A DNA stretch of 64,000 bases from Lingula anatina (taxonomy: Eukaryota > Animalia > Brachiopoda): positions 15,252,001 through 15,316,000 of the forward strand of contig CM120646.1 of assembly GCA_051362555.1 (NCBI GenBank). The letters run 5' to 3'. This document shows, piece after piece, positions 16,674 through 45,632 of the stretch; positions within the stretch are counted from its first letter, which is position 1; each line of letters starts with the position of its first letter. Below the pieces are notes generated by a model. The model was not told where the DNA came from. It did no database searches and saw only the letters and a program-made list of their open reading frames with translations. A program made the translations under genes and the position numbers.

Positions 16674-19600
16674 CTAGGCCAACACCATGGGTTCATCTTC
16701 AGAGAAACCTTGAATCATGGGTGAGTCGTCCTCGGCATCTTCTGAAACATTCAATCCAAACAATTTTTAAAAGTAGTTTCAGGGCTTTAATCACATTTGA
16801 AGCATCAATTAGCATTCATGTCATTTTTATTTAAAAGTTAAAATGCAGTGGAGCAATAAATTCTGACCCCTCACCCAAGCAAGATTTTTTATAGGCCCCA
16901 TGCTGTAATGTATACCCTAAGAGAGGCCATACCTTTAGAGACACCATTCCTAGTGACCCGCTTCCACTCACCTAAATCTCCAGAACCAAACGTTGTCCTT
17001 CCAGACCTAGTATCATAGTGACTGTTTGCAAATGAAAGGAAACTTCTTTGCAGGCGCCGATGGCGGTAACAGTATACTCCAAGCAAGACCACCAATACCA
17101 AAATGACCGCTCCAGACACTCCACAACTCACAGCTAGCACGTTGGAGCTCTTACTGAAAAACTGGCGGTCTGCCACACCTACAATTATAGAGAAACATGA
17201 ATTGAATACTAAGACAAATAGCACCCTAACTAGGTACTGGCCTGTGTTGCTTTTAGTAGGACACTGAAAAAATTTTTTTGAAATATATGTTTCTTAGAGC
17301 GACACCATTTCCTGATTAACTTTAGAATGCTGCCACTCGAGTAAGCCCATCAGCCTCTTTGGGTGTCCCAATATACACATATTCCACAGACAAAGGTAAA
17401 TTTATATCAACTAATACTTGAACTTGCCACTTACTGCTCTTTACAATTATTTCCCAACCAGAAAGCATAATGGAAATTATGCCTGCTGTACCCCTTCTAA
17501 ACATTATAAATGATTGCAGCACATCTCGGTGGTAGGATCCCCAAAGGACAATATGATACCTACATTTGATCTATTCATAAAAATACAATAACTTTAAAGA
17601 ATCTGCCCATTTACTTACGTTTCACCTCACCAAACTCTATTTTCTGAGAATAACTGCCAGGGTATCCCTGATCTGGCATTAATCTGACTTTAAATATCCA
17701 ACGAGCTTCATCTGTGATGTTTACGATCAAGTTTTTGGCAGAAACATTTCTGTTCTCAATTGTTGTCATGTTTGATCCTCTTTCTTTGACAATATTCACT
17801 TCATAAACCTGAAAAGAGAATGATTTTGGAATATGGTTTCTTGAACAGTGATATTCTGACAGTGTCTGTACATATTTTGTAACATTTAGATATTAATCAT
17901 AATTTATGTATTAATATTTATTTATTTGTAACATACAAATAACTTAATTTCTGTTTGAACAATAACTGAGAAGCCAGGTAAAAAGAAGACAAATTATAAA
18001 AACGGCTCTAATATATGAGCGCAGGATTTTTTTTAAATTCAAAATAATAACAATATAATTATAGATCTTCCTTTTTGGGAGAAAACACTCACATATTTCT
18101 TTGGTAAGACATCTTTCGGAGGGAACCAAGTCAACTGGAGAGCAGTGTCTTTTATTTGCACAAAGTCAAAACCTTCTGGTGCTGCATATGGGGCTAGAAT
18201 ATTGAAAACAAATACATTATTTTCTCATTTCTTAATCACAACAATGGCTTCAAAACAATCCATTTAGGTCCTCTAAAACACTTCACGGCAAGACTGACAG
18301 ATATACATGCATAAAACAACCAGGAGATGGACAGATATCATAAAATAAATGTCAAGTGACATTAAAACTGTTGTTTGAGAATTATACTTTTTTTTTCTAT
18401 TGTGTTCACAAGCAAGAAGTGCATACATGGCACTGTCTATGGCAGATGCAGGTGACGGCTTTATGTCCAAACACACTGTCCATAAAAATACCTCATATGT
18501 AGACTTAGTAAAGTCTTAGGCTCCATTTCCATAGGAACTGATCTACATAGATCGATCGAACTCTGCAAGGATTCTCACTGAGTGCAATCAGCTTAACTGA
18601 ATGACACGCCTCCTCCTGGCACCTCGTAGAATACGGAAAAGTACATTGGAAACAAGAGAAGGCATGTCATTCAGTTAAGCGGGTTGCACTCAGAAAGAGT
18701 CCTCATGGAGTTGGATCGATCTACACAGATTGTTGATGCCTATAGGAATGAGGCATAAATACCAAAGCTCGCAGGCTGAATAAAAACTTACGGATCGTAA
18801 CAGAGACTGGTTGAGATTTTTGCCCTTGTTTCTCCTGATCTACTCGAACAATGATATCATAGGTGGCACCACGTGTCAGGTTGACAATCTGATACTTAAT
18901 TTGTAAGTCTGTAGTTGGTTTCACCTGGTACCCTTCAGTATGCTGGTTCCGTTTTTCAACAGTGTCAATTTCATAGGCCTAGAATGAAAAAGAAAAGAAA
19001 ATTGTACTGAGTAAAGGACATGCTAAAGACTGCTTAAGACTTTTTTGTCTTCTTCTGGTTTGCTCATTTTGAATCCTTGAACAATATGGTGTTGCTGCTA
19101 TTGGCACTTAAATAAAATATGATGACCTCCTTCAGAGTGCCCCCCCCCTCCCCAAAAGACAACAATATCTTACTACGTGTTTATGTGTAGTATCTCACCA
19201 GAGCCAATCCAATCCCAGCACATGGTGCTTCAAAGCTAATGTTGATCTTGTTCTTGCCCTCTGTAACTGCTTTCAAACGTTTTGGGGGAGAAGTTTCATC
19301 TGAAAGACCATAGTATTGATCATATGCATTAAATTTCTAAAGGATTTAATTATTTTTAAAAGCTTTATTTTGTGTCAAGAGAAATAATTACGAATAATTT
19401 GAAGTATTCCATTTTCTTCTTCAGAAAAGCAAACATTTTCAGACTCAATACATGACAAATAAGTACTAGTTGCAACATACAAGAGCGTAATTATATCGAG
19501 TATAATTTGGTCTAGTATGTGGCATACAGTGGACAAACAGTAGTTGTAACTGACTTATACAACAAATGATGCTTCAAACAATAAGATGAATGCATGAAAT

Positions 19601-20047
19601 GCATGAAGATGTATGAAAATACAGGCAAGCCTGTATGTGAAATACAAGTGAAATTGTCCTACTGTTTGAAGTGCCAGCCATAGTTTACATAAGTGTGCTT
19701 TAAGAGTTCCATCTGGATCATAAATCAACAGATATCAATTAAAATCGCGTACCAAAGGATGTTGTATAATCTACAGTGGGACTGGGCCTGGTTACAAAAG
19801 GTTGGTCAATAGCCACAGTGAATGTGTAATCCTCGCATGCAAGGACATTTGGTATCAAAACCAATGACTTGGTGGTGGTGATAGCTTCAAATCTGGACAG
19901 GTCGCTCAAATCGTGAAACTGGTGTGAGTAGAACACCTTGTATGTCTGTGAAAAAGAAAAAAAAACAAAGCTTCACAATAACTTTCTGGTTACAGACTTA
20001 TTCAATTTTTCATTCACTCATTTAATTCACTATTAAAATAATTTAAG

Positions 20048-20079
<32 letters not shown>

Positions 20080-20258
20080 TTAGAGTAATGCAACAGGCTT
20101 AAATTTTTCAAATGATCCTAACTTACATATCCAACACTATTAGGAGGAGGGGTCCATGTCACCTTGATGACCTGTTGGCTTAGCATGTCTGCCTTCAAAT
20201 TTCGTAAAACTGGTTCTGATCCTGAAATAAAATTAAGGAAAATGAAGAGAACCCAAAA

Positions 20259-20290
<32 letters not shown>

Positions 20291-20759
20291 TAATCAATTC
20301 CTTTTTTTAATTTACAAACAAATCTAAAGGATACTCATCAGGCTGTAAGCTGTAGGAGAGGGAAGGGGGTAAATGTTCATTTGCATGTATAACAAACAAC
20401 CTGGAATCACTTAGTTTCTACTATGGTTCATATCTGTGTTAACATCTGTGTTTATTTACACAACCCACCTCCAGTTTTTACTGACCTTACTTTCCTACCA
20501 GTGAGCCAAGCCCGACCATATTCACATAATAAATTAGGACATAATTTTTTTTTTTTTGTACCAGATTTGTAAAGTTCTACCATTATCTACCAGACTTACC
20601 TTGAGTTCTTACTACCTGTTCCACCAATGGTCCATACCCAACTGAATTTACATAACGTATTAGAACGTTATAGTTTGTCCCTGGTGCAAGGTCTTTAACT
20701 GGAAGAAAAAAACACAGTATAAATATAATTATACAAATGATGGCGCACACACACACACG

Positions 20760-20797
<38 letters not shown>

Positions 20798-23457
20798 GTG
20801 TTCTTTCAGACAATTATAATGTAAGTTTTAACATTTTTCTGTTGCCTTAATCTGTAGTGTGTGAGATCAAATTTACAACACCTTAGGAATACTTATTTCC
20901 ATTTCTTTCATGAACTTCATATGAACTTTTGATTTAGGACAAGTAATCTGATTGAAAAAAATTCCTGAAGATACCTATACTTTAGATACGAAACTATTGT
21001 CCCAGAATCTTGTCATTTTTTAAAACATAATACAAACTTCAATGACACTCTCCAAATTGATAAACTGTGTCTTACTTGTATAGGAGTGGGTGCTGTCACT
21101 AACATTGATATAATGTGAAGCATTAAGAGGATCGGTCCACCGGATGTTGTAACCGAGCTGAAATATAAAAAACAATAGTAAAACAAAGAAAATGGTACAT
21201 GTTATTTGCAGATTTACCTACAGCAAAATGATTTCAACATTTTAACAGTTTCAGGCAAGTTACCCAATATCTGCATCAATTTGGACAAGAAGCTGAATAT
21301 AATGCCAGCCCAGAAAGTACTAAACAAAGAGAAGATACAGGACAAACATATGAGTTCTTCTATAAAAATTTTAAACACCCATCATATATGAACATGTTCT
21401 TTTACTACACTATCTATGAAGGGAGGACAGAGACAGAGAGACCAGGGGTCAGTTTAACAAAGGAATTCAAACTGAAAGTTGGTTTTAATTTAAAAGACCA
21501 AAGACAAAATCAAACATTTGCCTGAAGTCATATCAGCAATAGTCGAATGAAATATGTATTATAAACACTGTGCTCTTTTTTTTTTTTTTAATAAAGATTA
21601 TTAATTTTTTCGCAATTATATTAGCTTTAGCAAAATCAAACAAAACTTATATTTAAATCTGTGCTCTTCTATAAATAAATGAATGTTGTTGTTGTTAATC
21701 TAAACCATTATCTGTATTAAACAAAACCATGGTCATGAAACACACATTGTCTGACGCAATACTTAAACTAGGGAAACCATTATGCAACTAGTTCATGACA
21801 GAGAACAGTGGCAAATCTTTGTTGGTGCCCTAAACACCAGCCAGTGTGGAAAGAATTGAAGAAGAAGAATTGAAGAAGAAGTACTACTTCTTCAGCCTAA
21901 ATTTAGGAGTCCCCACAGATGCTCTTTCTCCATACCTTACGGCCTGATGTGTCAGGACTCCAAGTGACAGTGATATTTGTGTTCGAACTTGTAAACCTGA
22001 CATCTTTGACTTCATCAGTGGGATGGTCAGCCAGGAAGTTGACAGTGACGTTTGCTGTGGCATCTCCCTCTCCCCCCACAGTCACCGCTGCCACCTGGAG
22101 AGAAAAATCTGAATCAGTATTCTTCTTTCTACACAGCATCCTGATCCATGTATTGCCTCTTACTCAACCAATTTATGTTGTATATGCAGTTATAAAAGAA
22201 GGGAAATATTCTATTCTATGCATAAAAGCACCACAAATGCTATATGAAAATACAATTTTTATGATTTTAACATTTTGTCTCTGAAATAAGATAATTTTTG
22301 CCCAATAAAAAGATGGAGTCATTACTGTATTAGACCCTTCCGATGTTTATATAGCACGAAATTAATTTTCTTGGAAAATTTAACACTTCCTCTTAACCAA
22401 TTCACAATCCATAAACTCTGTTTTTAAAATTTAAGACTTTATTTTGGGGTCATGCTTACTTGTAACGGAGACAGAGATTGTTGAATTTCACTCAAAACAT
22501 AAAAAACAAAAATGACAAACTTGAGAACTAATTTATACGTAGTAATTTTCACAATTTATTTGGAGAGAACACTTTCTCACCAGGTCACATTTAGTTAAGT
22601 ACTTTAGTCATTGTATTAGTTACACACGTATACACATCACCTACCTTAAAAATGTATTTATGGCCAAACTCCAAGTTTTTGACCAGATACTGCACTGTTG
22701 AACCAGGTGGGGAGGGTGTAGATATTGAATAGAGCATTATCATCCATGCATTACCATCAGAACGCATGTAATACACCTGGAAGGTACACCATCCCTAATA
22801 GTTAATACCTGCTTCATGTCAACAATAATGAACAAATGAATTTTCCAAATGATGATAATTGTGTACTGCCTGAAGAAAAAATGATAAGATCATTGTGATT
22901 AGCAAGTTGGGATCGATTCAGAGTTTTTTTTTCCCCTGAATTACAAATACTTAAAATTCTCTTAATATAATGGTAAATTGAAATGGATTCTGGGGGCTAA
23001 AATGCCAAGTGAACGACTCCAATGTAAGGCTTCCTGTATGCAAGGTTTCCCCAAAATTACTGAACACCTTAAGAATAGAAAGACAAATTTGCAACTTATT
23101 TTAAAAATTTCTAGTTCTTAAAACCAGTTAACAAATGGAAAATAGATGGAAAATTGATTAGTGAGGCTAACTGGATACACTTTCTATCATTATCAGTAGT
23201 ATCTTCATTATTCTAAAAAGACTTCCACTGACTTATTATTTTATATAAGCTTTGGAACAGTCTTCACTGTACCTTGTAATCTAATATCCGTCCATTTGGC
23301 TGTAATGGAGATTTCCAGGTCAGCTGTAAGGTGGATTCCTCCAAACTATCCGAACTGACATGGAGTTGATATATCAAATCTGTGCAGGGGCCTAGAAGTA
23401 TGAATTATACACTTTGATACCTTGTATATTTTTTTGTTTAAACTTACACATACACAC

Positions 23458-23490
<33 letters not shown>

Positions 23491-26400
23491 CTGATGTCAG
23501 AAAGTAAAATACTACAATTAATTTCAGCAAGCAAAAAGAAGAGTTATCCAAAGCATTTGACAAGCAGTGTTCTACTCACCCCAAGCATGCACACACACGC
23601 GCGCACACACACAGAGAGAGAGAGAGAGAGAGAATCTGTATACCTGGTATACCGTCCCTTGTTTTAAGAATTAGCACAGGATCTGAACCATGGCTTGGAG
23701 GCCCTGTAACATCCACAATAACCTTGAAGTAATACTGTGTGGCAGGCGAGAGACGCGTGAAATTGTAGCTTGTAGCGGTCGACGGAAGCCTCCCATTGGT
23801 TACGTTCCTAAAACTTTGCATGCCACTGGTCCTTTAAAATTTAAGAAAAAGAATTTGTTAAGACTAGTATTAAAATGGCGTTCATTATGAACATATCAAA
23901 TACTGTAATACTTTCTTAATAAAAAGTTTGTATATGTTCTAAATATTTTCATGAAAAATGTGAAACCCCCATGTCAGATGCTCCAGGAATGAACTATTTA
24001 TCAACAAACTACAAAAAATCCAAAAATGAGCTTTTTTTAGCTAATTCAAAATAAAAATCTAACTTCAAAGTACTTCATCTTGATGCGAACCTTCTAAGAG
24101 AGCATTCAGAACAGCGAACTAACAGATCGCAGATCAAATATGGCGACCCACTGAAAAGTTTGTCGCCTAACTCCCAAACAGACACTGTATAGATTCCCCT
24201 CAGGGCTTAAGCAACAAGCATTCAAGTGGGCCGGCCATTTTTGATCCGCATATCTGTTAGTCTGTTGTTCTGAATGCGCTATAAAACATTTGATTTCGAT
24301 AAATAAGTTTTCCAGTAAGGCCAGCTCTGTTGTACAGCTCAGTGTGTTTATATAGGTGCACTGGTAGGAAGCCATCACTTGTACAATTTACCTATAAGCT
24401 GGCATGTAAGTATAACTAGGAGGTGCAGGTGAGGGAGGGTGCCATCTCACAGCCACGCTGTTGACACCAGCTGTTCCAACAAGATCACTCACTGAATAAT
24501 GACGGGCTCCTGAAATATTTTTTAAGTTGCAACTTTTTCAATGTCTGTCTTAAAGTGCACAATTAAGGAAAATAAGTTATTTGAATTTTATTTGTATCTT
24601 GAAGATACGTTTGAACTGAGCGTGGCATCCCAGTAATGAAAACTGCTTTCACCAGTTTCTTACAGTTTCTTATATAACTCAAGTTGTGTCAACATACCAA
24701 GGGATAAACTGAATTAATCACTAAGTCAGTAATAAAAGAGCTTCAAAACTGCACATTCTTCAAATTTTTGGTTGCAAATTGACCTACTCATCTCCCCCTG
24801 TTATATACATGGAAAGAAAGCAGAAAATATTTGTTCAAAAATCATTTTTCAGGTAATATGAAACGATTTCCTTTGAAAGTTCTCCAAGTTACACTTTTTG
24901 AAACTACATAGTGGCATTTGGCTGGCTTTTGTGCAAAAATTTGATTTCAAATGCATCTTTATAGGATAAGCTTACCTTTGGTATCTTTTGCTTCCTTCCT
25001 CTCATGCATTCTTTCAGATTTACATACTTTTTTTTTTTTTTTTTTTGCTATATGGTTTTATTCCAAATATTTTCCCTGCTTTAACAACTGTTTCACAAGA
25101 AGTTCAGTAATCATTATTACAATTTCTAAAGTTTTGCACATTTGTTCACAATTGATTCAATTTTAAGCTTGAAAGCCCTTTTACAAATATGGGAACTCAA
25201 AACCTTACCACAGTCCCTTTCATCGCTGCTGTCATAACAGTCGTAGTGTCCATCGCAGAACTGAAAATGGTGCAGGCAATTGCTGTGGTCAGTGCAGGCC
25301 ACCTGACCACTCGGGCACAGCCGGGGCGTTGTTGACCAAAAGACTGGAACTGAACCACAACTATCAAAATGTAAATTCAGATTCCTCCAGCTGTGTTGTT
25401 CAAAGGTAAAATCACTAACTCTAATACTGGACACTCATGTTGTTGGAGTGGCTACAAAACATCAAGCAGATCTATGTGAGTGTCTAGTATTTGAGTTCAT
25501 AGTTTTGCCTTTGGATCAAAACTGGCTTGAGATCACATAATGGATATATTGTGACAGGCCATACGGCCTTGTGGTTTGAGCATCTGCCTACAAAATATGA
25601 GGATGCAGGCGTGACCCTGCGGTGGTGAGAATTTATCCACCCCAGGGTGGAGAGAAAGTCTACAGCCAGTCTACATCAGGGCCAAAAAATTGTCAGGTAA
25701 ACTGTGATTGATTGTTAACCCCAGATTGACCGTTAACCCCACTGAGACAAAGTGTACGTAGTGTTATATTAAACAAAACTTCAATTTTTACTTTCGAGAT
25801 GACCGAAAATCTTTGCATTGGTCCACTGAGTTAACCCTTAGGTAAGATGCACTGACCTCATGGTGTCACTGTGACTTGGTCACAGCTGTTAAAAAGGTGG
25901 TACAATATCTACATACATTAAAACTTTTGGCTATATGATGGTTTTAACCACTAAATTAACCAATATATTCAAATACAAGGCAGTGTTTTCAGTATAAAAT
26001 GGCAATTTGTCTGACATTAACAAAATAACATTTGAAAATACCTGTAGAAGCACAGCCGAACTCGTCTGAACCATCTGTACAATCGGAGTCGCCATCACAA
26101 ATCCAGGTACGCGGAATACATCCCCCACCAATCTGACACTCAAACTGACTGCTGCTACATGTAGGTAAGGTAACTGGAATTTCATATTTTAAGATTTTCA
26201 ATATGAGACACACTATGAAATTTGCTTATGCAATTTCTTATTACATGTCATATTGCACTGTTAACAATTTCTTGATAAGTGATGTTGTTGTCAAACAAAG
26301 TCTACGCTGTGTTGGCATCAACTAGACAATAACGATCATGATGATGCAAAGTTAGTACAGCAGTAGTTCTATACAAAATGAAACTTTCATTCAGTATTAC

Positions 26401-27734
26401 TGCAAAAGATCAAATGAAGTTAATTGGACTAAGGTGTATAGAATCTCATATATAGACATCAAAAATCCTGAGATTCACAGTAACCTGGGCCAACTTTCAG
26501 ATGGAAAATCATGTTGGACTAACTACAGGATTTATCTCATCTTAATAATTATTAACAATATCAACAGTACATTTCATTTTTAAAAATCATCACATTATTT
26601 CAAATTAACTTAAGCCAATATAAATTTGTGAAATTTCCAAGAAGTCCATAACAATGATAACAAAAATATATTTATTACTATTTCTAGGACAATTTTGCTC
26701 ATCAGCATTATTGCCGCAGTCATTATCACCATCGCAAACCCAAGACCTGAAGATACAGTGGACACGGTTGTGTGGTGGAGGGCATTCAAACTCGTAGGCG
26801 TTACAGGTTGTGGGTAATGGTGTGGTGGCTGAAAACGTAAATATTGATATTAATTCCGGATGTAATTGTACCAAGTTTTAAGATTTAAAAAATATACCAA
26901 GAGCTCTATTTCACTCTTTCACTCAACAAAGCAATAAATATCCATCAACAGGCCCAAGCAGGAACAGGGATCACGGATACCACATGCCCCTGTCTATAAC
27001 CAAGTCATTCTGCCAATTACCACCTTGAGTGAAAATCCCTCACAGCTCAATTAACACCAGAAAACCCATGTGCATTCAGCCTGATGATACTCATGTGATA
27101 AGAATAAAACACGGGCGTTTCATAAAACTTATTTCCAAAGTAAGTGATTCTCTTTACCAAACACACTACAATATACCGACCACTGTCTATTTTATATGTG
27201 TTCTTCGTACATGCTCATGTACTTACTGTAACAAGCCTCCTCGTCTGACCTGTCCCCGCACTCTGGGTAGCCATTACAGCGCAGGAACCGTGAGATACAT
27301 TCTCCGTTGTTACACTGGAACTGGGTACTGCTGCACGTTGCTAATGTGTCGTTGCCTTGTATGATGAAAAGAAGCAACATTTATGGGCTGTTTCAAAATG
27401 ATCAATTGCAAAGAAACATTAAATATTCATTGTTACATCAAAGTTAAACAAAATACCTCAACATAATTTTCATTGATTACATATAAGAGGCCTCTACTGA
27501 AATTTTTTATCATACATGCACATTTTATGTATGCAATTAAATGCATTCTTTGCATATTTTACATGTGCAATACTCTAAGGCCTCATTAAATTTTCAAATT
27601 AAGTTGAATTTACCCAATGAAATCTGCTAACCTAAAAAGAAAATACATGTAGCTCTGGCTGGGACAAATGTCACACACAAACACAAACACACACACACTC
27701 ACACAGACACACATACACACACAGACACAACTGA

Positions 27735-27777
<43 letters not shown>

Positions 27778-29206
27778 CTACTTACAAAAATATTCATCTG
27801 AATAATCTCCACAATCATTAATGCCATCACATCGCTGTCCCACATATATGCAGAGACCATTGTTGCAGCGAAACTGATAGTGTTGACATTGTCCACTGGT
27901 TGTTGGAGGTGAAGAGACAGTTGTAAGGGCAGGAGTGGTGGTATCTGGGAGAGAAAATAACATGAAATAAAATGTTTTTACTCTCTACGTGATAGTGGAG
28001 TGGAAATTGCCTACTTACCTGTGGAAAATAACACTAAACTATATAAAGGCTTCTGGTCCAAATTCTATCAGATCCAGTGCAGCTTTATATGACTCAGGTG
28101 ATAGATTTTTTAGACCTACAAACCTGCTTGGCTGCGGCACAGATAATGTAAGTGTCTCTGCTATAGCAATTTGTTATATGAACATTTACAGAGCTCTGTA
28201 CATTTTTCAAGAGCCAAGTACAAATATTCAACTGAAAGCACCTATATCAACTGATTTCTTTATCACAACATGTAGTTTCACAAAAATTGTAAATTTACTT
28301 GAGATGTGTATATAATCTCAACTGCTATTCTACACATTTCTTCAATTGTGTTAGCTGAGACAGGAAAAACAATACTTACTACAATGCTGTTCATCAGACA
28401 TGTCACCGCAGTCGTTGTCACCGTCACATAACCAAGTCCTGTAGACACAGCGGCTGCTGTTATGACACTTGAACTGATACGACGGACATGTTTTGTCCTC
28501 ACAACCCACCTCGTCCGAGCCGTCTGTACAATCACGGTCTCCGTCGCACTTCCAGCTAGAGCTGATACAAGGAACAAGGCCGCTTCGACAGGCAAACTGT
28601 GATGCTGAGCAAGTGCCAGGAGCAGCTGAGAACAGGAGATTGAAATGAAATTAGTCCTGAACAGGGACACATAACAACCAAAACAGGTGTGATTTTTCAA
28701 GAACAAGACTAGTGTTATACAATGAGGTTAAGTAACAGCACAACTAGCGGTGTCATGAAATGAAAATTACACAAATAGGGGAAAAAACACCAGTTTTATG
28801 TAAAAGGTACATCTTCATTTTCTCAAACATTACATAAGGGTATAATTAAGTACATAATATTTAAATAACTACCCATTAGCCTTAATTTAATCTATTAATT
28901 AATTAAATATGGTTTTGTATCAGATACACTTACCAGTAGTTGTGGCATTACAGTGTCTCTCATCACTTCCATCCCTGCAGTCATTATCTCCGTCACATAC
29001 CCAGCGAACAGAAACACAACGTCTGTTATCACATTGGAACTGATTAGAAGCACAGGTGCCATATACTGAAAACATTGATACATATATATTACACAGGTGC
29101 TATGTACTGAAAACAATGAAAACATATATTATACAGGTGCCATATTCTAAAAACATTGGTGTATATAATATACAGCAGTCTTACACTGAAAACACAGTAC
29201 ACACAT

Positions 29207-29259
<53 letters not shown>

Positions 29260-30265
29260 AAGGATATCAAATAATAAAGATTTAAGTATATTATGTTATG
29301 AAAGGGGTGACAAAATGCTGATTCATCATTTTTCAGCCTCCCAACCCATCTATAATGTTTGAAGTATAAGAAATATGATGTATAGAACTCAAATATTACT
29401 TTTCTTTTTTTAAGTTATTGAGATACACTATCAAATAAGTGTGAAGATGACTTCAGCTATTTCTATCAAATCATATGTGACAAGAACATTGTTTTCTCTG
29501 AGACTTAAGAATCAGCAGAACATACCACAGCCTTCTTCATCGCTATTGTCACCACAGTCATTGTCATGATCACAGCGCCATCTGCTGGGGATACATCTGG
29601 AGGAATTGCGGCAAGAAAACTGGTAACTGTTGCACGTTACATACGCTGAAATATACATATATTTTCTTAAATGAAGAAAGCTATTATGCTTATATATGCT
29701 GCAAGATGTTGAACATAACAGCTTTGATGAAACATTTGAATTTTTTAAAGATCATCAACTCTTTGGTAACCTTGTGTCAGTTTTTGTAAATTAATTTTTC
29801 TTCTTATTGCCTTTTTTCTGTTCCTATTCTAGTGCATAAGTGGGTTAGGTGTGCTAGTGTGTAAATTGTTTAATATAGAACAACGATGTTGGTGAAACTA
29901 TGTTAGGTGTGCCAGTGTAGACTGTTTAGATGAAAAGTGACCTCAATGAAAATGTGTTTTGTATGTCAATGTATAAATTCTTTTAGAAGAACTGTAACAT
30001 AATGAAATGTATGCAAGGTGCAGCAGTGTGACAAAGACAACAGAATGTTCAATGTAGCACCAAGGAAGACATAATAGTGGTTTTACTTACGGCAGTTGCG
30101 TTCATCGCTGAAATCCCCACAGTCATTGTCGTGGTCACACTTCCAGTTGATAGGAACACAGTGTTGGTTTGCACAGGTGAAATCTACTGGGCCACAGGAT
30201 GCTAAAAGGTCAAAAAGATATCCCTTTGATCAACTATCACCCTGCACCTAAAAAAGTGACTTTCA

Positions 30266-30302
<37 letters not shown>

Positions 30303-33204
30303 GAGAGAGAGAATCAACGACACTTACTTGTTCCATTCCCCTCACGACAATAACCATCAGGCCCCTCATACTGGGTCCCATTACAGCCACACTGCTCGTT
30401 TCCATCAGGATTCAGCACAATCACTTTATCTCCACCACACTTGCAGCTTTTCACAGTAGGATGAGACTTCCCAGGAACTGGCATACACAGGTTGCTGCAG
30501 TGGGTATCATTTGTGCAAGGGCTTATGGCTGAAAGACAGGGAAAAAATATTGATACCAGTGTACAAGGGCTTATGGCTGAAAGACAGGGAAAAAATATTG
30601 ATACCAGTGTACAAGGGCTTATGGCTGAAAGACAGGGAAAAAATATTGATACCAGTGTACAAGGGCTTATGGCTGAAAGACAGGAAAGAAACATTGATAC
30701 CAGTGTACAAGGGCTTATGGCTGAAAGACAGGGAAAAAATATTGATACCAGTGTACAAGGGCTTATGGCTGAAAGACAGGGAAAAAATATTGATACCAGT
30801 GTACAAGGGCTTATGGCTGAAAGACAGGAAAGAAATATTGATACCAGTGTACAAGGGCTTATGGCTGAAAGACAGGGAAAAAATATTGATACCAGTGTAC
30901 AAGGGCTTATGGCTGAAAGACAGGAAAGAAACATTGATACCAGTGTACAAGGGCTTATGGCTGAAAGACAGGGAAAAAATATTGATACCAGTGTACAAGG
31001 GCTTATGGCTGAAAGACAGGAAAGAAACATTGATACCAGTGTACAAGGGCTTATGGCTGAAAGACAGGGAAAAAATATTGATACCAGTGTACAAGGGCTT
31101 ATGGCTGAAAGACAGGGAAAAAATATTGATACCAGTGTACAAGGGCTTATGGCTGAAAGACAGGAAAGAAATATTGATACCAGTGTACAAGGGCTTATGG
31201 CTGAAAGACAGGGAAAAAATATTGATACCAGTGTACAAGGGCTTATGGCTGAAAGACAGGAAAGAAACATTGATACCAGTGTACAAGGGCTTATGGCTGA
31301 AAGACAGGGAAAAAATATTGATACCAGTGTACAAGGGCTTATGGCTGAAAGACAGGAAAGAAACATTGATACCAGTGTACAAGGGCTTATGGCTGAAAGA
31401 CAGGGAAAAAATATTGATACCAGTGTACAAGGGCTTATGGCTGAAAGACAGGAAAGAAACATTGATACCAGTGTACAAGGGCTTATGGCTGAAAGACAAT
31501 AAACAAATATTGATATCTGTGCACAATGAGGGACAGAAACTGAACAATAAATGTTCACCATTTGCTGGAGTTAGGACTGTAAGTGAACTTTGATAATCAA
31601 AATACGCAATATCAAAAATGACTAAGTTCAGTCAGTGAACCACAAGAATAACATTATCACACATCACGGATGTTTTGTTTTCATACGCATCACCAATTTA
31701 TAGTCCACACAAATCAAATGATTCAAGCAACTTGGTGCTTGCATTTTCTGATTTTTTTCTTGATTTTCATCAACAACTCACTATAAATGACCTGAAGGAA
31801 ACCAGCCATTCACAGATTACAAATAGGAGTATAAGGTAATAAAATGTCTTCTTCAAAACATGAGAAGAGCAAGTCCTGATTAACATCACCCAAAAATTTA
31901 CCATCGAGATACCTAAATAAATGTAGAGTATTAAGTAATAAAAAAAACTTTTAAACTTCCTTCCAATAAATCTCCAACCCCTTATTATTAACCAATAGAA
32001 CAGAAGATGACTTACTGGCCTGGGAAGACTTTGAGAAGATCTTGAGGTCCATGATCCTTGGCAGGTCAGACTTGATGTACCGCAGTCCCGCCCCAGTGGT
32101 CTTGTCAGCTGCCAGGATGCCTTGTAACATCCAGTCTGTCCAGTAGATGTCATTCTGAAGAGTGACCAGTATTGTCATTATTGCTACTATTAGTACTTCT
32201 AATACTACTACTACTACTACTACTACTGGGCAATCAACCCACTGGACAATCCCTGGACAATCCACCCCACCCCACCCTGACAATACCCCCTGGACAATAC
32301 CCCCCGCCCCCCCCTCAAAGGAAGATTCTGCCTCCCAAACAATATATATGAATATGTTTTTAGTGTTTCCCATATGATCCCAGGACAGGTGCTACTCACT
32401 TACCTTATACACAGCTATTGAGTAAGGATGAGGGGCATATCTACGCCCACTGACCACTGTGTGGACATTCCGGCCATCCAGGTCCGAGTACTGTATGTGG
32501 TCAAGGTAGGCGTCTGCCCAGTATAGCTTGCTAGCTTGGGCATCGATGGTCAGTCCATTGGGCCATTTCACATATAGTGTACTGTACACAATACGCTATG
32601 GAAAAGGAAATATGAATCAAATGAATTATGAAACAAAAGTTCAACCATCAAGCCATTTTTCTAGACTGTACCTAAATGTGCTAGGTTAAATGCTAAGCTG
32701 ATATACTAAAATTGTGATATGTAACTCAAATATGCTAAGTGAAGGTTTAAACTGAAAACTCTTCATGATGTAAGAAAAAGAAAGTATGACGGGACAGATT
32801 CATTAACCATTGGTAGGTATTGAACATTGTCGCCTACCTCAGGAAAATCCGTTTAAGACACTTTTCATGCCAAAATGAGTTGTCATCCCTTTATCATATA
32901 TTTATCCATAGTTTGTTACTTCACAGACTCTTTGAACAATTTAAAGCAACTAGTTAAGACCTCAGTGAAAACACAAGATACCTGAATGGACTCTGGGTCT
33001 CCATTCATCCAGGCTCTGACAATCTGCGGGTGCTCTGTTGACCAGTCCGTCCAGTAGATAGAGCTGAAACAGCACAAGAACTACCTTAAAACACCTTTTA
33101 TTTTTACTTTCACTCTTTAAGTACAATATTTGAGTTCTTTTTTCTAGCAAACTCACTGAAGAGCTCTTAAACAAGATTCTTTCCAACTACAGTTTTATTT
33201 ATTT

Positions 33205-33238
<34 letters not shown>

Positions 33239-36200
33239 GGAAAATTTGATTTGGTTTATCCCTGGTGGAACCTTCTAAGTGGCTGTTTGATGTTATTCTA
33301 ACATGTAACTTATCAAATCAATTTTATCACTTGATAACTAAATTTTGAACTAGTAATTATCTAGGGCATACAGTGAATAATCAGAGAGCAGGATAGTTGA
33401 AGGTACCACTTGATATCATGAGTTAACTCACCCATGGGCTGGGTCTGCCACAATGGCCCTGGGTTTGTCCAGAACTTTAATGTTCGTGTGTGGTATGGTT
33501 TGATTGTGGGAGCCATCGATGAGAACTCTACGGAATCTGCCATCAGTTTTCATCACCTCAATCACACGACGGCCTGCATCCACAAAGTAGAGGTTCTCCG
33601 AGGTCCAATCCAAGGCAAGGCCTTCAACGGACTCCAGTCGTCCCTCCGCCAGAACCTCTGCCGTGTCGGTGCCATTGAGGCACATTCTCTGCAAGGGAAA
33701 TAATAGTTATTACAGTGCCCTGAGAGCACTTCTTTAAAGTTTTAGAAAGATTTTTATTTAAACCATATCTTCACTTACTATATAATTTGCTATATTTGTT
33801 TATGCACTAGCTATTTGACTGCATTTATCTTTAATTTACCTTCTATTTCAAGTTTAGTTCATCTTTTTTTATCAGTTTACTTTAATTTTGTGAGCTCTGA
33901 AGCAAATGTGTACAGCACTTTTATGCAATTAAGGCCACTGACTGTATATCATCCCCCTTCCTTATCATACCCCTACCTTAATATAATCCTCACTGATATC
34001 TGCCCAGAAGATACAGTTTCCTTTATAATCATACTCCAAAGCGATGGTGTTGTAGAGATGGGGCAGAGCTATGGTCTCTGTAGTATTGTCCCCCAGTATA
34101 TAGCGCTGGACCACAGTACGTCTGGTGTACAGGAGAAACTCTGGCTTTACTGGAGGAGAAGATCTTGAAAATTAGCATTTGGCTACAAGATTTGGCTAAA
34201 CAGCATTTTATAATGAAAATAAAGATTTTGAAAAAGAAAATAAGAAAATAAGATTTTGTGATTATTGTAAGCTTAGTAAGGCTATCATGATCAGGTTAAA
34301 GACAGAAGAAAAGTATGGGTCAAACGTTTATTTATTTATTTTTTTTTTTACTTCTTATCGCAAAATGGCACATAAAACATACAGATATCATAAGGTTTAT
34401 ATTCATCTCCAAGTAAATAAATTAATCTCAAACTAATCCATGGACAGGCTATATATTCACCTGTGCAACCATTTACATGACAATTCACACATATGCATTC
34501 TCACTGATGAAAATAATGAAAGGAAAAACACGCATGTGCATGCATGCACACATCACATTTACTTACCTCCAACAGGGCAGAACAGTCTATCTGGACCATA
34601 CCTCGCCTCATCCCCTCCTTGACAAGTATCTCCAGGTACTTTACGATATCTGGAAATATTATTCATGGAATCAAATGAGTTTTCCATACTGCCTCCTATT
34701 ACTTTCAAGAATCATTATACACATAAGAATCATTATATGAGGCTGCCATTTAGTGGAAAAGTTGGAAAATATGGAGTGGAGTCCAGGGGACTGCCTAGAC
34801 CAATGGTATTTTTGGCTCCCAAAAAAGGTACCCTTTGCTATCAGATCATCACAACTGTTAATCTTTTAGATAACTGTAACATTCTGATGTCAACCTGATA
34901 ACTTATTCAGACTGCACTGACATCAATAGGTGTCATTCATGTCCAAATGATCAAAAATCATTGTTACTAGTGCAGACTGAAGAAAATGTCAACTGTTATC
35001 AGAACATGTGTACCTCAAAAAATTACTTCTTCTGTGACAAATGTTTGATATCTTATTTATTTGATTTCACTAACAAACTAATGACAACAAAAAAAAGTAC
35101 CCTTTTGTTCTAAAGTAGGTCCCTCCCTCGGGGCAGATTGTGGGCACTCTGTGGACGTCAACGCCAGATGTTGCGTCATACAGACAGTTGGAGGACCGCG
35201 GTGCCCAGCCATACTGCAGTCTGAAGCCAAAGTCACTGAAACAAAGAGATATCATGATGGGTATTTATAATCTGAGCTGTATTTTCTAATAATTTATTAA
35301 GTAAAATTTTTATTAGAAAGTGTTGTAAAATTTTTATAAGTAGGTTGAGTATAGAATATAAAATTTGAATGATTGACTTGAAGATGACCAAGCTAAAACT
35401 TGCAGTCTTTCAAGAACTAGTTCATGAGGCTCAAAAGAAATGTGGGTAGATGCATCAAGACAGACTGCTAAAGATACCTGCTGAGATAAATATAAATATA
35501 TACATATATATCCAGTGTAGGCAAGAGAGTACACAATAAATTCAGCCTGTATTTTCAACTGATACATTTAACAATCATTCAATCTATGCCCTCTCCCTAC
35601 CATTCAAAGTCGGCCCTCAAGCAAAGACAGTTTTCTTGTCTGATTGGACGATCAAAGTCATTGCCATTCAAGCATTTGGCATGAGCTCTTCTGCGATTGT
35701 AGACCACCTTGCGCCCCAAAAGGCATCCCCTACCATGTCCTTCTGTGGGGTCAGAGGGGGTCCACTCCTTGTAGTCATCTCCCCTGCAGGCTATGTTATC
35801 TAATGGCAAAGAGTTAGAATAAAGTTGTTACTATAATCCCTCATATATAATACCAGCGAAGAAAAGACCAAATGCATCATCAAAACTTGATCCATTTACC
35901 AATGCAATTTATTAACAGTATTATAGATAGACTTTCTGACAAGAAGCCTAGACTTACTTTTCAATACTTTTGAATCAACATTCCTAAATATAACAGACTA
36001 CATTTGTAAACATTTTTTTTTGGGGGGGGGGGGGAATTGTTAAGTGGTGCTGTTCGAAATTATTGAATAATTACTGTACTTACTGAACACAAAGGTCAGA
36101 TTGACCTTGATGATGAGCCAACTGTGGATCGGACTCCTGGAGCCAAACACAGAGAAGATGGTGGTGTGTTCCCCTGGCTCCGTCAGCACGCCATATACCC

Positions 36201-38402
36201 TTATCTTCTCAGGACCAAAGATCAAAACTTCCCAGCTTTCTCCTTCATTCCATGAGTATCTGTTTTTTAGTAATAAATTTCAAATTTATTATGAAATATA
36301 ATCCAGCGGATTATTTCTTCTACTGTGATATGGACTCGAAGTTACAGTTCTTGTGACAGATTCTTCAAACAATGGCTCGAACAAGAAACTTGGGCTCCCA
36401 AGAAGTCAGAAAACTGCCAATACTCAGAAAAATCTCATTATTGTTTTTAGCAGCCCACAATGACCAAAAAGTCAGAAATCTATAACACACGCCAATTATC
36501 CAGGCATCATGGGGAAAACAACTACTTACAAAATCTCATTGGTCATTTCATACTGTCGGACGGCCACTATTAACCCGCCGTGGTCACCAAAGTTGTAGAA
36601 ATGCTGGCCTTTCAGTACCTGCAGAGTATACAGTTAATTTGTGAGAATATTTTCTTTTAGTTCTATGTTAACCTCCAATACCCCAGTAATCATTTCCTCC
36701 TCCAGAGGCAGTCAGACAGAAAACCTGACAACAGTAGCAAAAGAGAGAAAAAATGAAATTCAATATAGTTGTTAAAGAATTTTAATATTAAAGTTGTTAT
36801 ATGTGGTACACACATTTTTTTTCAATTCATCTTATTCACACAAATTATATTCTTAATTGCTTATAAACTAAGAGTATTATTTTTCACTTATTCTTCTACA
36901 TGTAATTTTTTTTTCTTATCATTCATTTATATATATCTATCCATCTCTTTTTTTTTAATTCAAGGACCACACCTCCAACATAAGTTAACAAGATGAACAA
37001 ATGGTGCTGCCATAACTGCAATACCCACACCCCACTCACCTCTTTCCAGTTGGCCCCAGCATCTGTCGTGAGATATATATTGGGTAAGTGATCTCGCAGT
37101 GATGATGTCACATTGGTGACCCCAGTAGCCATAATGAGGCCTGGTGCTGACGCCTTGCTCAAGATCTCAGCTGTGCGGGACCGTGGGTACAACTGCTGAA
37201 GTCGCTGGGTGAGGTGGAGAGAGCAGTCCATGAACTGAAATGACAGGCAGCCATTAAAACTAATACACACCAATATATAAAAGATGACTGTTTGATCTGA
37301 TCCTCTACTAAAATTACATACTATCAACAGCATATTATATCAAACAGTCATATTTCTTTCCTAAATAATAACAATAAACGAACTATTTTAATTTTAACAT
37401 TTTTTAAATAAATAATAAATATATATGAAAATATATAATACACATAATACTCTGAACTGAATGGGATGTTACAAAATTTGAAAAAAAAAAAAGCATACAC
37501 ACTGAGCCACAGATGTATGAACTGTAACATCCACATAATAGAGTACATACCCTATAACAATGAGTGTGGTTTCCTTCACTGTCCTGATACGGAGCATTTA
37601 TCCTCTCCCACATACCTCCCTGACGAGAAATATGGTTTAGAAATTAGTTTAAAGAAATAGCATTGATTATAGCTATAATTATAGGTCAATTTATCTGTTT
37701 ATTATAGATGTACATTTTCTGGCATCTGTCTGATAAGTTTCACTTCAGCCAAACTCCAGAACAATTCAACTGAATTCAAAATGTTGAACCAGAACAAGGA
37801 TAAATTTGGAGAAACATCATAATATTTTTACATACAGCATTAAGTCACAATGGATCAAGCTTGGCATTTTGGATAAATTATACATGATTCTGAAGTGAAA
37901 CAAGCTTCTGTCTTTTTAATGTAAGAAAGAATTGTTTACAAGTACCTATATAATATATAAAAAAAATCTGCCATAGTTACCTTGTCATAAGTGATCAGGG
38001 TAACCTGTCTGTCAGGATCCAGGGTGCCATTGGCCAGCTGAGAGGCGATGTATATCCCACGCAGCCCGTCAACACGGTGAATGTCAGCAAAGGATTCGTC
38101 AGCAAAATACCTGTTCATAAATGGAGAGAAAATGCATATGCATATGAGCAATTCACAGTGTGAATGCGCGTGATTGCGTATGAGTGCATGTGTGCAGGTG
38201 CGCACGTCTTCATGTATTTTAACTAAATCCCCAAAAAATGTGTCTTGAAACATTTCACAATTTCTTGCCAAATTAGAATGTTCCGCCATATGATAAAATT
38301 CATTATATGTCCAAACTGTGTAGTTTAGTGTTTAAAAATATACACAACTTCTTCCACCAATAATAATAATAAAGATTATTCAGCCACTGTGTGTGTGTGT
38401 GT

Positions 38403-38484
<82 letters not shown>

Positions 38485-41400
38485 TATTAAATATACTTTC
38501 TCTGGTTAAAGAAAAATCAAATTGGTAAAAAAAAAATGCGATCCCTCTTGCTCTGCCCTACCTTAACCAGGTGTCCTTCAGAGCTCCCTTGGGGTTGAAG
38601 TAGACCACCCTCTCCAGGGACAGGGAGAAGTTGGTGCCACTAGCATCTGAGATGTACAGGTGAGTGAGGGTGGCGTTGTGGTTCACACAGGCAAACACCT
38701 GGTCTTCTGAGGCATCAGCTATGTAGTAGTCCTGTATAAGATAACATTGGGTACATGTGGATTAGGGTCAGGAAAATAAGACCAGTAGAAATGGGTATGG
38801 GGAAGTTTTTGATTTACACATTGTGTACTCTATAATTATTATTCTTATTAATATTATTATTATTATTGCTATGAATCTTGAAAATATTGTTCTAATTTAA
38901 ATTATTTGATAACTTTACACTGGAGAGATACTTCAGAAAATATTAATATCTAAAGAAAATTAAAGACCATATTGTAATAAATTCAACTGTAAATTATAAT
39001 AAGACTTGTTTTTAAGAAGTCTTCCAAATATATGCACCTTATCAAATTTTTCACAAAAGCATAGACATCACAAATATATCAAAGTTACATGTGATTGTTT
39101 ATGGCTAAAGTATGAAAATATATTTCTTGTGAATAAATGAGATGTTAAACATACACAAAAATGTTCACACTAATTACTATGTAAATAAACTAAAACAGCA
39201 AATCTCAACACATTTCTTAGCTTCAGTAACAAAAAAGATGGCTCAAGTTCCTTTATCGTATTCCTCCACATTTTTTCCTTAATTCAGTTAAATTGGAGAA
39301 TGTTCAACCACCAAATGCAGTGTTTCAAATCATTTGTACCCAGCAAATTTAAGCTTGGGAAGGGTATTGTTTCAGCATGAGGAATCGTTAGGAATGTCTA
39401 CCACCGATTCTTAGACCCCGTTCCCATACCTAGATGGATTTAGCAGGATCAACCCATCTCCGAGGGGTTTCTCACTTATCTGCATTCAAATCAAATGACT
39501 TAGATGTCTGACATGCCTAATGAAGCTGCTCAACGATAATTAATTACCCCCTGACAGCTTCAGTAAGCATGCCAGACATAAGATCCGCTTAAGCTGAATG
39601 CAATTTAGAAAGAAACCCCTGTGCCAATCCTAATTGATCGATCTAGGTATGGGAACAGGGTTTTATTCACAGAAACCTCCTTTCTCTTGGATGTGTAGGC
39701 TATATTTTATTCTTACCAATCCATGTAAGCTGGTTGGAAACCGTGCACGGGAGAAAGAGCCTCCATTGTGGGAAACCCAGAGTATCTGGGATTGGTTATG
39801 ATGGGAGTCTGCTGTGAGGGACTATAATGTAATAATATAATACCACATTCACAAGCCTATATCCTATATAGTCAACACAAACAATGACACAAATCAGAAG
39901 TACACGTGTGAGTGCTATCCTATCTGGTGCTTTCATACGGTGGCTTCTGCATATTCCTACTGTAACACTGAAATGTGAAGAATGTTAACAAAAGAAAGCA
40001 TGCTGTCTTTAGTTGAAAGAAGGGTTTTGTTATCTCACATACTGAACTGAAGATCAACTTTTCTTTTCGAAACGGCTGTATTTACTCTGTGGGTAGACAA
40101 AATTTACCAGTGTTGTGATATCATGGAATCATTTTAAATGGTCGTGAAATGTTTGAATTTTAACTCCATATTAAAACATGGAGTATGGATCTGCATGATA
40201 CAAACACCCTTCAGTCATTAAGACACAGGACTGTAAGTCTAAGAGAGAACAAAATACACGTTTTCTCTGGGACACACAGCTCTCAGTAGGAATTTCAGTA
40301 AAATGCAAAGGTTGGAAAAATGGGATGGAATGCTGATTTGTTTATCTTTTTCCTAAATCTGATTTTAATCTGTTTATTATTTTTTCTTTTTTTATTCATC
40401 TTATTTATCTTAATTTTTCATTTACATTTACTGAAATCCCTCATTACTATTCAAACATCAAAACTTGAAAAAAAAAAAGGCAGAAAGCAGGAATAATAGA
40501 TGGCACTGCAGGCGGCATTAAAAAAGCCAACAGATGGAGCTGCTGTCTGCTGCAGTGGCCACTGGGGCATTCTTACCCTCTCAAATAATTGTGATGGAAA
40601 ACGAGCTCTCTGGAATAGCCCGTCCCTTCCCGAGACCCAAAGTTGCAGAGTTAAATTCTGCTTTTGACTGCCTGTAACTCTCTAATTAAAAATCAATAAC
40701 AGAGCGAGGTTTAACTCCAAATTACACATTTAATACCTTTCTCTAATGCAAATGTACTTATTACAAATTATATACAAAACAGTTAAATGGCATAAAACAG
40801 AAATGGATAGCTAGGAAATATACTTAATATGTAATAATTCATGAGAGAGAGAAAGAGAGAGAGAGAGATCATTCAGTGTTGTTCCAGCTTACCATACGCC
40901 TGGTGGCAAACATATAATCATTCTTGATTTCAAAATCCACCACATCAGCAAACACCGTCCTGATGTTCAGTGGGTCATAGTTGTGCATCTTTATCACAGT
41001 GGATAGCCCTGTGGGTTCCAGGCGCTCCAAGTACAATGAGGCATTATTTATACCAGTGCCCCTGAAAATAAAAACAGTGACCTTCAGGGTGCATGTGCTG
41101 TATATTTATACATATGAGTGTGTTGAACTTGTTAAAGCCAGTTTTTTTTTTTTTTTTTTTTTTTGAGAGATAATGCGAACTTATGTGGTCCAAATGGTTT
41201 TAGGCCTGCTTACACTACAATTAACTTTCAGGTGGATGCAGGCCAGTTTTTTTTTTTTTTTTTACAATCCATAAGTGCATGCTTATCAGCTCTGATATTT
41301 GGCAACAATTTCAGTCTACCACATCTCTCAAAAGAGCATTCAGCTGCCTGGATTTTGAGGTTCCAATAAGCACTGCTTAAATTCATGCCCATCTTGTATG

Positions 41401-44400
41401 ATAATTAGAAACTGAAAAAGCTGGTACACTGGATCTAAAACTCAGGCCAGCATGCTCGTGTATTCACACAAAAACATTGTTAAATATGGATAATGCAGTT
41501 GTTAGCTTATCTTGAGCAGCCACTTGTTACCACAGATAATAGTAGAGTGTATGCCAAATATGATAACATGTTTACAGGGGTATATTTATGTAACAAGTTC
41601 TACAACAATAAAACTTGTGCTACAAAATAGTGGTCACTCTTGCCAAAGGATAACAACATTGATTGCTATTGCAACTCAAATTTCAACCAACACATGGCAC
41701 TGAGGTGAGCTAACCATAGTCTTGTTTCACCAACTTTTTTTTTTTAATGGATCTTTATAAATCTGAAAAAAAAAGATTATCTCACCACTGGAATGATTTG
41801 ACGTTCCTCTGCAGCATTGACCATGACCTCCCAAAGTCTCGGGACAACCACAGCTAAAATACAGTTATATCATATATCATAATTCTTGTATTAACTTCAT
41901 ATTGTAAGCACAACACAAATACAGTAGAGGTCCTCCCTCAACTTGGTGCTTTACAACTCAAATTATCAATTATCACAAACAAATCTTATGGAGCCGATTG
42001 TTTCAGTGATATTAAGTGGAATTAATTTGAACATTGCCTATATATCAGATAAATCCAACTTATATACATATATCTAAGTAATGATGACAAGCCTCTATCC
42101 TATCTAATACACACATAATTCTAAAATAATCTCATTTCACGATTAGTACATTTGGTTTTGTTAGAGTCGTGAAGCATCGATCTTCCGACAAGAGCACTCT
42201 TCATTTTGAGCAAAAATATTCTATTTTAGCTTTAGTACAAAGAGAATTTGCAATAATATTAGTTAAAGAATAATAATATACATAGCAGTTAATACAGACC
42301 ACTTTCGTTTTGAGTAAAACTATCCTTGTAAGTTGTCCAAAACATATTATGCACGGAAGACTATTTCAGAATAAAAATATATTTTACAGTTTATATGGGT
42401 AATCTTCAATTTGAGTAAAACTATCAATTTAAATTGCTCAAAACATACTTAGTCTGATATCAGAAAAACAAAATACTGAGCAGTTTACTTACATCACTTT
42501 CTATTTGACTTAAACATTCTGAGATAACCTTTTCTATACTAATAAACATCAATTAATGAAATACTTACCAGTTTATAGGGATCATCCTCATTTTGAGCCA
42601 GTACAATATTGGGGATAGACCTGTGGGGGACCACCTGTTTAGGGGTAAAGCTGAGAGGGACCTTGGTGAAGGTCCTCCCAAAGTCTGTGGTGACAAACAT
42701 ATAGTTGTTTTTGATGTCTGTGAACAAGTACTGAAATGAAAGTGTACATATATATCATGAGAAATTGTTAATTAATTGACTGACTGATTAATATTATCCT
42801 ATAAATCCCATAATCAACCAAAATGGTTATGGCATTGAAACTTGTTTATCAAATGCTCAGTCTTTTTCCTAATCTACATATGAGGTAACAACTTTTGATA
42901 CATAAAGTATTACGTACATTAATATATATGTAACTCAGATTAGTAAAACTTGAGCGATACACGACTTCTGATTAAAAAAAAAATTTTTGCTTCTCATGTA
43001 GTGATTTATTTGATTTATGTTAGTTAAAGAATTTAACTTTTAAAGAAACAAGCTAAAGTTGATAATACCTCAGCTTGTTTCTTATGGTGTACATAAAGAG
43101 CTAAATGAAATATAAAACTTTCACCAAGCAATTGACATGATAAAAAATGTGCTTTCATACACTCACATGTGTATTATACACAGGACTGTTATAAAACTGG
43201 CTGATGGTTGCATTCTTCGTCCGATTCAACTTCAGCGCAATGTGGCGGAAAGAGTTCCCATAGTCACTGGAGACATAGAGGTCGCTGCTAAAGTTTGGTG
43301 AATCAACATTGGTGTCCCTGGCCAGTGCTACTATGACGTCAGAGTTCTCTCCAGCCCAGTGGACAATCATTTGATGGTGAGAGTCATGCAGCTCCACCTA
43401 TTGAGCAAAAGATAAATTAAATCAGTCAGCACTACAGTATTTGCAAGGTCAGAATTTGAAATGGGTTGCAGGACACAAAAAAGTTCTATTTCACCCTGTT
43501 TAAAGAAAACTTGTCTGATATGCTCTACCCTTATCATCCACCTTGTGATAGGAGAAACAAATTTTATGCATTTTAAATGGGTAGGAGAAAAGCACAACTT
43601 TAAATAAAAAAGGGGAATACATAAAAATTTAACAATAACAAGTAAAAGTAACAATCTGATTTGCGCTGTCGTATGTTACATTATTAGGGAACTTCCTGGT
43701 AAAATTAAAATTTTTAAAGATTTTTAGGAAAATAATTGAGAAGTGTGATTTTAATGCTTAAAAGCATCAATGATGCTTGTTCAAGATGTTAACTTAGAAC
43801 TGATTCAAATTCAGATTGTCAGGGAACTGTAACTACCACTGTTTATGAATAGTTATTTTCAAAAATACAAGTACAATAATTGTATTATTCTATATAAAGT
43901 TTACTGACTATAGTATATCATAAATCAAAATAATGTCATATGCACCTTGAATACTAAAGATCCCAGTCATGCATGATAAACAACAATCCACCCTGACAGT
44001 TATAGATACTTTTCTAAAAATACACACTTGGTTTATAATGCCTGTACACACACCAACACACCCTTGCACACATATGCACTCATACACGCACTAAATGATA
44101 TTTATTTAACATTATGTAGAATATAAAACTTATCAGGTTAAGAAACTGCATTTGTTCACTTTCAACCAAAAAAGATTTTTTTTCATTCTTTTTTCATCTT
44201 TCCCATGGTTCTTTAAGTCTGTAAATAAGTCATGGTTCCAGTTTAAAGTAAGATCTATTCTATTCATCTCAGTAAGTCAAAGTTTATGGATAGCTCACCA
44301 AACAGAGTCTACCTAATCATTTAATTGTCCCCCCTGCACCTTTTGGTGAGCTGGGCAAACTTGCTAGCTACTTATAAAATTTGAAAAAAAAAGAATCAGA

Positions 44401-45037: not shown

Positions 45038-45101
<64 letters not shown>

Positions 45102-45588: not shown

Positions 45589-45632
<44 letters not shown>

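Follow-up and report, generated by a model that had tools for sequence, protein, structure and literature searches.

Results

The SORL1 gene and the exons flanking the array

The window analysed here, a stretch of 64,000 nucleotides from the brachiopod Lingula anatina, carries on its minus strand a gene in which the domain order Vps10, YWTD, EGF, LDL-A and FN3 is present as in SORL1 (SorLA). The protein P0001, named in the source records as sortilin-related receptor isoform X2 of Lingula anatina, aligned exon by exon over positions 47402 to 16677, with scattered differences, as fits the same species or a very close relative. Exons near the array match the Vps10, LDL-B, EGF and LDL-A profiles, the EGF and LDL-B matches falling under the curated cut-offs. 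The relevant features are:

16674..47402, minus strand: coding span of SORL1 (sortilin-related receptor), with Vps10, YWTD propeller, EGF, LDL-A, FN3, transmembrane segment and tail
32016..32154, minus strand: upstream exon, encoding the last YWTD blade, and its phase-1 donor at 32016 (profile, RNA, RefSeq protein)
31537..32015, minus strand: unique 5' portion of the intron (RNA depth)
31489..31536, minus strand: diverged boundary copy of the unit (34/48 identical), whose end is acceptor 1, with its AG at 31490-31489
30529..31488, minus strand: 20 full 48-nt units (TRF and motif listing), intronic in the spliced RNA seen; each reads first 17 nt of the EGF exon, possible branch A, pyrimidine tract, CAG
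30529..30548, minus strand: acceptor 21, chosen by every identifiable junction read (RNA)
30328..30528, minus strand: 201-nt EGF-like exon, P0001 residues 1040-1105 (PF24468, E 0.028, below cut-off; protein match; RNA)
30091..30201, minus strand: next exon, with the first LDL-A repeat, beyond a 126-nt intron (profile, RNA)
29051..29172, minus strand: second acceptor triplication, degenerate and preceding an LDL-A exon; its acceptors lie ahead of 29146, 29106 and 29065, the last being the annotated one (sequence only)

The EGF-like exon is 100% identical to P0001 residues 1040-1105, and its extent (30528-30328), together with the donor at 32016, is confirmed by the loose ends of RNA reads and by the RefSeq protein. 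This agrees with the first-pass annotation, which had held that only the last acceptor of the array gives the canonical 201-nt exon; the start it gave for the following exon, 30202, is corrected to 30201 by profile and RNA. A homologue search with the EGF exon alone (limit 2000 aa) gave no match, and a PDB search matched unrelated short motifs only. The repeat peptide is absent from both full-length RefSeq isoforms (X1 and X2), and no repeat-bearing isoform is found among the three cluster members (two full-length, one partial). The partial one, P0127, lies on a 9,664-nt contig and stops exactly at the donor preceding the intron with the array, which hints weakly that the assembly is broken at this point.

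Farther along the gene, in the Vps10 region, two similar 105-nt exons stand in tandem (40681-40577 and 39821-39717, minus strand); isoforms X2 and X1 take one each, so that these are annotated mutually exclusive exons. Elsewhere in the window, an ORF at 6691-7761 (plus strand) consists of 51-nt coding repeats with a Thr-rich Pro-Cys-Pro-Trp motif followed, by eye, by a C-type lectin-like start, and a gene piece at 11873-12409 resembles it; neither has a Pfam match at E 0.1. The last exon of an angiotensin-converting-enzyme-like gene lies at 63168-63572 (plus strand; PF01401, E 1e-16), and three 33-nt direct repeats, 70-79% alike and spaced by 158 and 174 nt, lie within 51962-52326.

A tandem array of intron-exon junctions

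The repeat occupies 30512-31526, with a period of 48, 21.1 copies, 94% matches, 0% indels and a score of 1820 (TRF). On the SORL1 strand it holds 21 acceptor motifs whose AG ends lie from 31489 to 30529, all 20 spacings being exactly 48, and the pyrimidine tract and CAG are kept in 21/21. TRF and the motif listing thus bear out the original description of 21 near-identical acceptors in 48-nt units. The first ~17 nt of the EGF exon had been assigned to the unit: in the window the match is 13 nt exact (16/17), and the full 17 nt are shared in the RNA alleles of runs X1, X2 and X5. Each unit also has a putative branch A, possibly functional, 22 nt before the AG.

The inner units are homogenised, differing at 0-3 of 48 positions. 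The 20 complete units sort into three types (12, 6 and 2 copies), which differ from one another by 1-3 bases confined to the pyrimidine tract. The diverged copy at 31489..31536 is likely the intron end that predates the duplication. The order of the unit types recurs at a lag of seven units (11/13, a value reached by 47/20000 shuffles), which suggests growth by block duplication and a past expansion. An array of this kind is far beyond chance. We also considered a dispersed element and rejected it, the unit having no other copy in the window at a match of at least 28/48.

The SORL1 frame is open from stop to stop over 30314..31570, spanning the whole array, and the 20 units would encode 320 aa at 16 aa per unit, so that the frame, the unit peptide and its total length stand as first claimed. 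Two of the three frames are open across the array on each strand; coding on the plus strand or in other frames was discarded as a reading, since the long ORFs follow from a stop-poor unit.

Only the last acceptor is seen in spliced RNA

We mapped seven of nine public raw RNA-seq runs carrying the species label (X1-X5, X7 and X8) to two targets, the first comprising the EGF exon and the last unit (runs X1, X4, X7 and X8) and the second the upstream exon, the unique intron and the first unit (runs X1, X2, X3 and X5). Loose ends at 30528 extend into the terminal part of the upstream exon (3 reads of X1, 5 of X4, 12 of X7 and 15 of X8), and loose ends at donor 32016 run into EGF-specific sequence in 3 reads of X1, 6 of X2 and 4 of X5 (agreement 0.98-1). 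The three reads of run X1 are probably identical in both targets and were counted once; the count excludes some reads of X4 and X8 with a short overhang and about two reads of X3 that cross the donor. Donor 32016 is thus joined to the last acceptor in 45/45 identifiable junction reads from six runs. No joint from donor 32016 to the first unit was listed at the threshold of three reads.

Array carriage is demonstrated for X1 and X2 only among the seven runs, and in these two 9/9 junction reads use the last acceptor. Upstream acceptors are used in 0/45 identifiable junction reads and in 0/9 of the carrier runs; the corresponding 95% upper bounds on their use are 28% (n=9, carriers), 15% (n=18, window-like runs) and 6% (n=45). 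Upstream products that are in frame and stop-free should escape nonsense-mediated decay. Their absence therefore reflects the choice of splice site and not decay, because the wrong choices here keep the frame and meet no stop.

Reads from the array itself are few. Two sense reads lie within it in X1 and three in X2, both polyA libraries; the last unit has zero depth in X4, X7 and X8, and the first unit has zero depth in X5 and, in X3, 3 bases from one intronic read. Over runs X1-X3, 5 array reads in 960 nt compare with 4 reads in 526 nt of unique intron (31537..32015 plus 31490-31536; p 0.73), numbers taken from depth tables in which the array count may be low, because the second target caught only one of the two array reads of X1. 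Array reads fit unspliced precursor, although single reads are not assignable to pre-mRNA or isoform.

These reads bear on whether the array is real. Back-joints of 48 nt and 96 nt (86 + 10 letters between) in the reads of X1 and X2 mean that RNA reads hold about three tandem units, and the tandem exists in two RNA samples. The copy number of 20 rests on the assembly, no RNA read spanning the array, and the repeat could in principle be much shorter, its length then being an artefact of assembly. Against this stand the tandem units in the RNA of both runs, the recurrence of unit types at the seven-unit lag and the lack of indels, and we regard it as the least likely of the alternatives weighed here; the artefact that the first-pass annotation had named as fatal to its proposal is mostly closed off by the same reads.

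A different objection is that the allele with the array splices poorly or is retained, the canonical reads of runs X1 and X2 coming from a second haplotype with a short array or none. The RNA runs are ungenotyped, their junction reads are unphased with the array, and 5/7 runs have no array read, all of which would suit such an account. Retention, or exonic inclusion from one allele, should nevertheless make array reads denser than those of the unique intron, which they are not, and the reads of X1 look uniform at two exon sites (6/7 and 4/4). We hold this explanation to be extremely unlikely.

Some features of individual runs deserve mention. The exon alleles of X1 differ from those of the window. 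X7 and X8 show many fixed exon-site differences from the window over 30328-30528, with no read 99% alike, which suggests that a distinct lineage may be sequenced under the same species label. In X3, one intronic read pair (31488-31695) has its RNA 3' end 1 nt past acceptor 1, as judged from depth bins. This single fragment is probably chance, but excision at acceptor 1 would place the intron end one base earlier.

The open reading frame is likely incidental

Every acceptor of the array lies in frame and no unit contains a stop. We simulated 24272 junction-spanning units of 30-70 nt drawn from SORL1 acceptors: 8288 were multiples of 3 and 4519/24272 (18.6%) were also stop-free. The in-frame, stop-free state is thus not far beyond chance, and the reading frame is likely incidental, best read as chance and at most making rare errors cheaper.

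Junction duplication is itself seen again in this gene. Near copies within 1.2 kb were found for 2/43 acceptors and 0/43 donors, compared with 6/600 random positions. The second triplication listed above has spacings of 40 and 41 nt, where one extension shifts the frame and the other holds a stop. A 44-nt stretch across donor 42569 likewise has two degenerate copies (66-75%) in the intron that follows (42271-42597), which might reflect an old duplication on the donor side.

The first-pass annotation had offered a ladder of length isoforms as one of two readings. In its leaky or regulated form, minority transcripts, or those of some tissue or stage, would use upstream acceptors in a share that depends on the repeat allele, adding hydrophobic, two-cysteine units of 16 aa between the propeller and the EGF domain. 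The preserved frame, the strength of every acceptor and the five sense array reads from the polyA libraries X1 and X2, whose mates are unplaceable, all speak for it, and the carrier runs bound upstream use at only 28%, in libraries of unstated tissue. Against it, none of the 45 junction reads is upstream, array reads are at intron background, a matching frame has a 19% chance, and none of the three cluster members is such an isoform. The insert itself would be hydrophobic (GRAVY 1.6-1.8) with 2 Cys per unit, in a linker that measures 44-52 aa in 335 alignments of 118/119 LDL-receptor-family relatives, a count biased toward alignments spanning both anchors and drawn, through a search with P0001 760-1200, mostly from LRP1/2/4 proteins and not from SORL1 orthologues; the spacing is 46 here and would be 62 with one unit. 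The ladder is not supported, and we judge it improbable even as a minor product, a level of use up to ~28% being compatible with the reads. A heritable dial, in which allele length sets the upstream-acceptor share of SORL1 mRNA in some tissue, appears very improbable.

Selection of the last acceptor

A splice-site matrix trained on 42 acceptors of SORL1 itself gives the used site 10.9 bits and the other 20 sites 10.2-12.3 bits, and all 21 array acceptors outscore at least 36/42 true acceptors. Site scores are equal, and therefore strength does not choose the last acceptor; selection by site strength was accordingly rejected. First-AG scanning was rejected as well, for it predicts acceptor 1 and is contradicted by the junction reads. 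The internal tg/gtatca donor had been called weak, and at 3.8 bits it exceeds only 4/41 true donors; the frameshifted products that it might yield find no support, as none of the 13 listed donor-crossing reads enters a unit, at low depth.

With each acceptor farther upstream the exon would grow by one unit, from 201 to 249 to 297 nt and so on, compared with 68-257 nt for the 40 internal SORL1 exons. Exon length alone fails to explain the rejection of acceptor 20, because its 249-nt exon is within the gene's own range, and exonic sequence beyond the 17 common nt may contribute to the choice. The upstream intron measures 527-1487 nt, depending on the acceptor, and the downstream intron 126 nt. 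In the accessible text of a study of human data, a long upstream and short downstream intron mimics exon definition and favours the nearest sites across the exon, while among competing 3' sites the upstream one is preferred overall, exon definition merely lessening this (PMC9225289). If human rules hold in a brachiopod, exon definition, and not site strength, likely picks the last acceptor. Of the proposal that exon definition overrides 20 decoys, the use of the last site is thus borne out by 45/45 reads, while the mechanism fits the data as an interpretation. When four 144-nt contexts were folded as RNA, with no shuffled controls, energies ranged from -13 to -25 kcal/mol and nothing distinguished the last site. 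The EGF exon contains 10 GAR triplets and the unit 0, but the upstream exon also has 0, a distribution that affords no test of enhancers.

Discussion

The original paper on mirage minisatellites is said to be that of Canestro et al. 2002. In amphioxus, mirages are described in Adh3, BflGb6, BflGb9, TnC and PGBD5, and in the accessible text of these reports the lancelet mirages leave splicing undisturbed (PMC3087553, PMC3902484). Five of six mirage features were found in the Lingula array: the unit straddles an exon-intron boundary of SORL1, confirmed here by RNA; its 48 nt fall within the 10-160 bp of reported cases (PMC3087553, as far as accessible); AG/GT splice signals are kept (21/21, 10.2-12.3 bits); regular splicing is undisturbed (45/45 reads, 9/9 in carriers, with minor use compatible); and homogenised inner units accompany an excluded boundary copy. 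The sixth feature is length instability, on which the absence of array reads outside 2/7 runs carries no information at such depth. Units in mature mRNA, which would define a coding VNTR or a ladder of alternative acceptors, were not found, and neither was a repeat-internal donor paired with a later acceptor, the mark of intron gain, at the low depth of these data. The array belongs to the mirage minisatellites, for which the taxon is no defining feature.

Like the Lingula array, amphioxus mirages place an intron 3' end and the 5' part of the next exon in tandem (as in BflGb6), retain their splice signals, are spliced normally, and combine homogenised inner units with a boundary copy that has diverged; as in SORL1, more than one case can occur in one gene region. 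The two differ in host, cephalochordate versus brachiopod, and in number, BflGb6 having 3-6 units and the Lingula array 20. An exactly in-frame, stop-free state may set the Lingula array apart from the amphioxus mirages, whereas length polymorphism and somatic instability are features of the latter, the Lingula copy number coming from one assembly.

Splicing that tolerates acceptor duplications has been described already (PMC3087553, PMC3902484, PMC2630376, each as far as its text is accessible). According to the accessible parts of two reports, human CBS 844ins68 also duplicates an acceptor junction, splicing strongly favours the distal copy, which adjoins the intact exon, and yields a normal mRNA; it is, however, a single 68-bp duplication compared with 20 units, and its choice was attributed to G runs between the sites, whereas the Lingula unit has no GGG on the sense strand (PMC2630376, PMC1802585). 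The human CBS 31-bp VNTR c.1444_1467+7(16_21) resembles the Lingula array in having, from its nomenclature, 16-21 units across an exon-intron boundary, but there a donor is repeated, out of frame, and polymorphism has been shown, while the Lingula array repeats an acceptor in frame (PMC2630376, partial text). Intron gain by tandem duplication, in the Rogers model, likewise multiplies splice signals and splices the extra sequence away; that model makes a new intron inside coding sequence, whereas in Lingula the repeat lengthens an intron already present and no additional one is seen (PMC3265369, partial text). The accessible text of PMC10078293 contains no acceptor-array case, and we found no report of the SORL1 array or of brachiopod mirages in the accessible text of the open-access literature, a scope that leaves subscription papers mostly outside.

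We put at roughly 85% the probability that the array is a mirage minisatellite of 20 tandem intron-exon junction copies, spliced out with its intron in the reads seen, likely by exon definition. On this account, short stretches of similar sequence flank the junction 48 nt apart, slippage between them likely gave rise to the first duplication, and the array would then have grown by block duplication, a seven-unit block probably being repeated. The spliceosome would define the EGF exon from its downstream donor and take the nearest acceptor followed by an intact exon, and the array would be selectively neutral.

Were the heritable dial true after all, SORL1 would possess a stable in-frame receptor ladder in which cysteine-bearing spacers of 16 aa uncouple the propeller from the EGF domain, and a minisatellite made from a splice site would tune a sorting receptor. 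On the preferred reading as a mirage minisatellite, the significance is modest, and lies in extending this class of repeat to brachiopods within the scope of the open-access literature. For genome annotation, arrays of such a kind yield four long spurious ORFs. The locus further offers a clean natural competition among 21 near-identical acceptors, in which the penultimate differs from the used one only by the sequence that follows, and the array is thus a ready substrate for tests of exon definition in an invertebrate.
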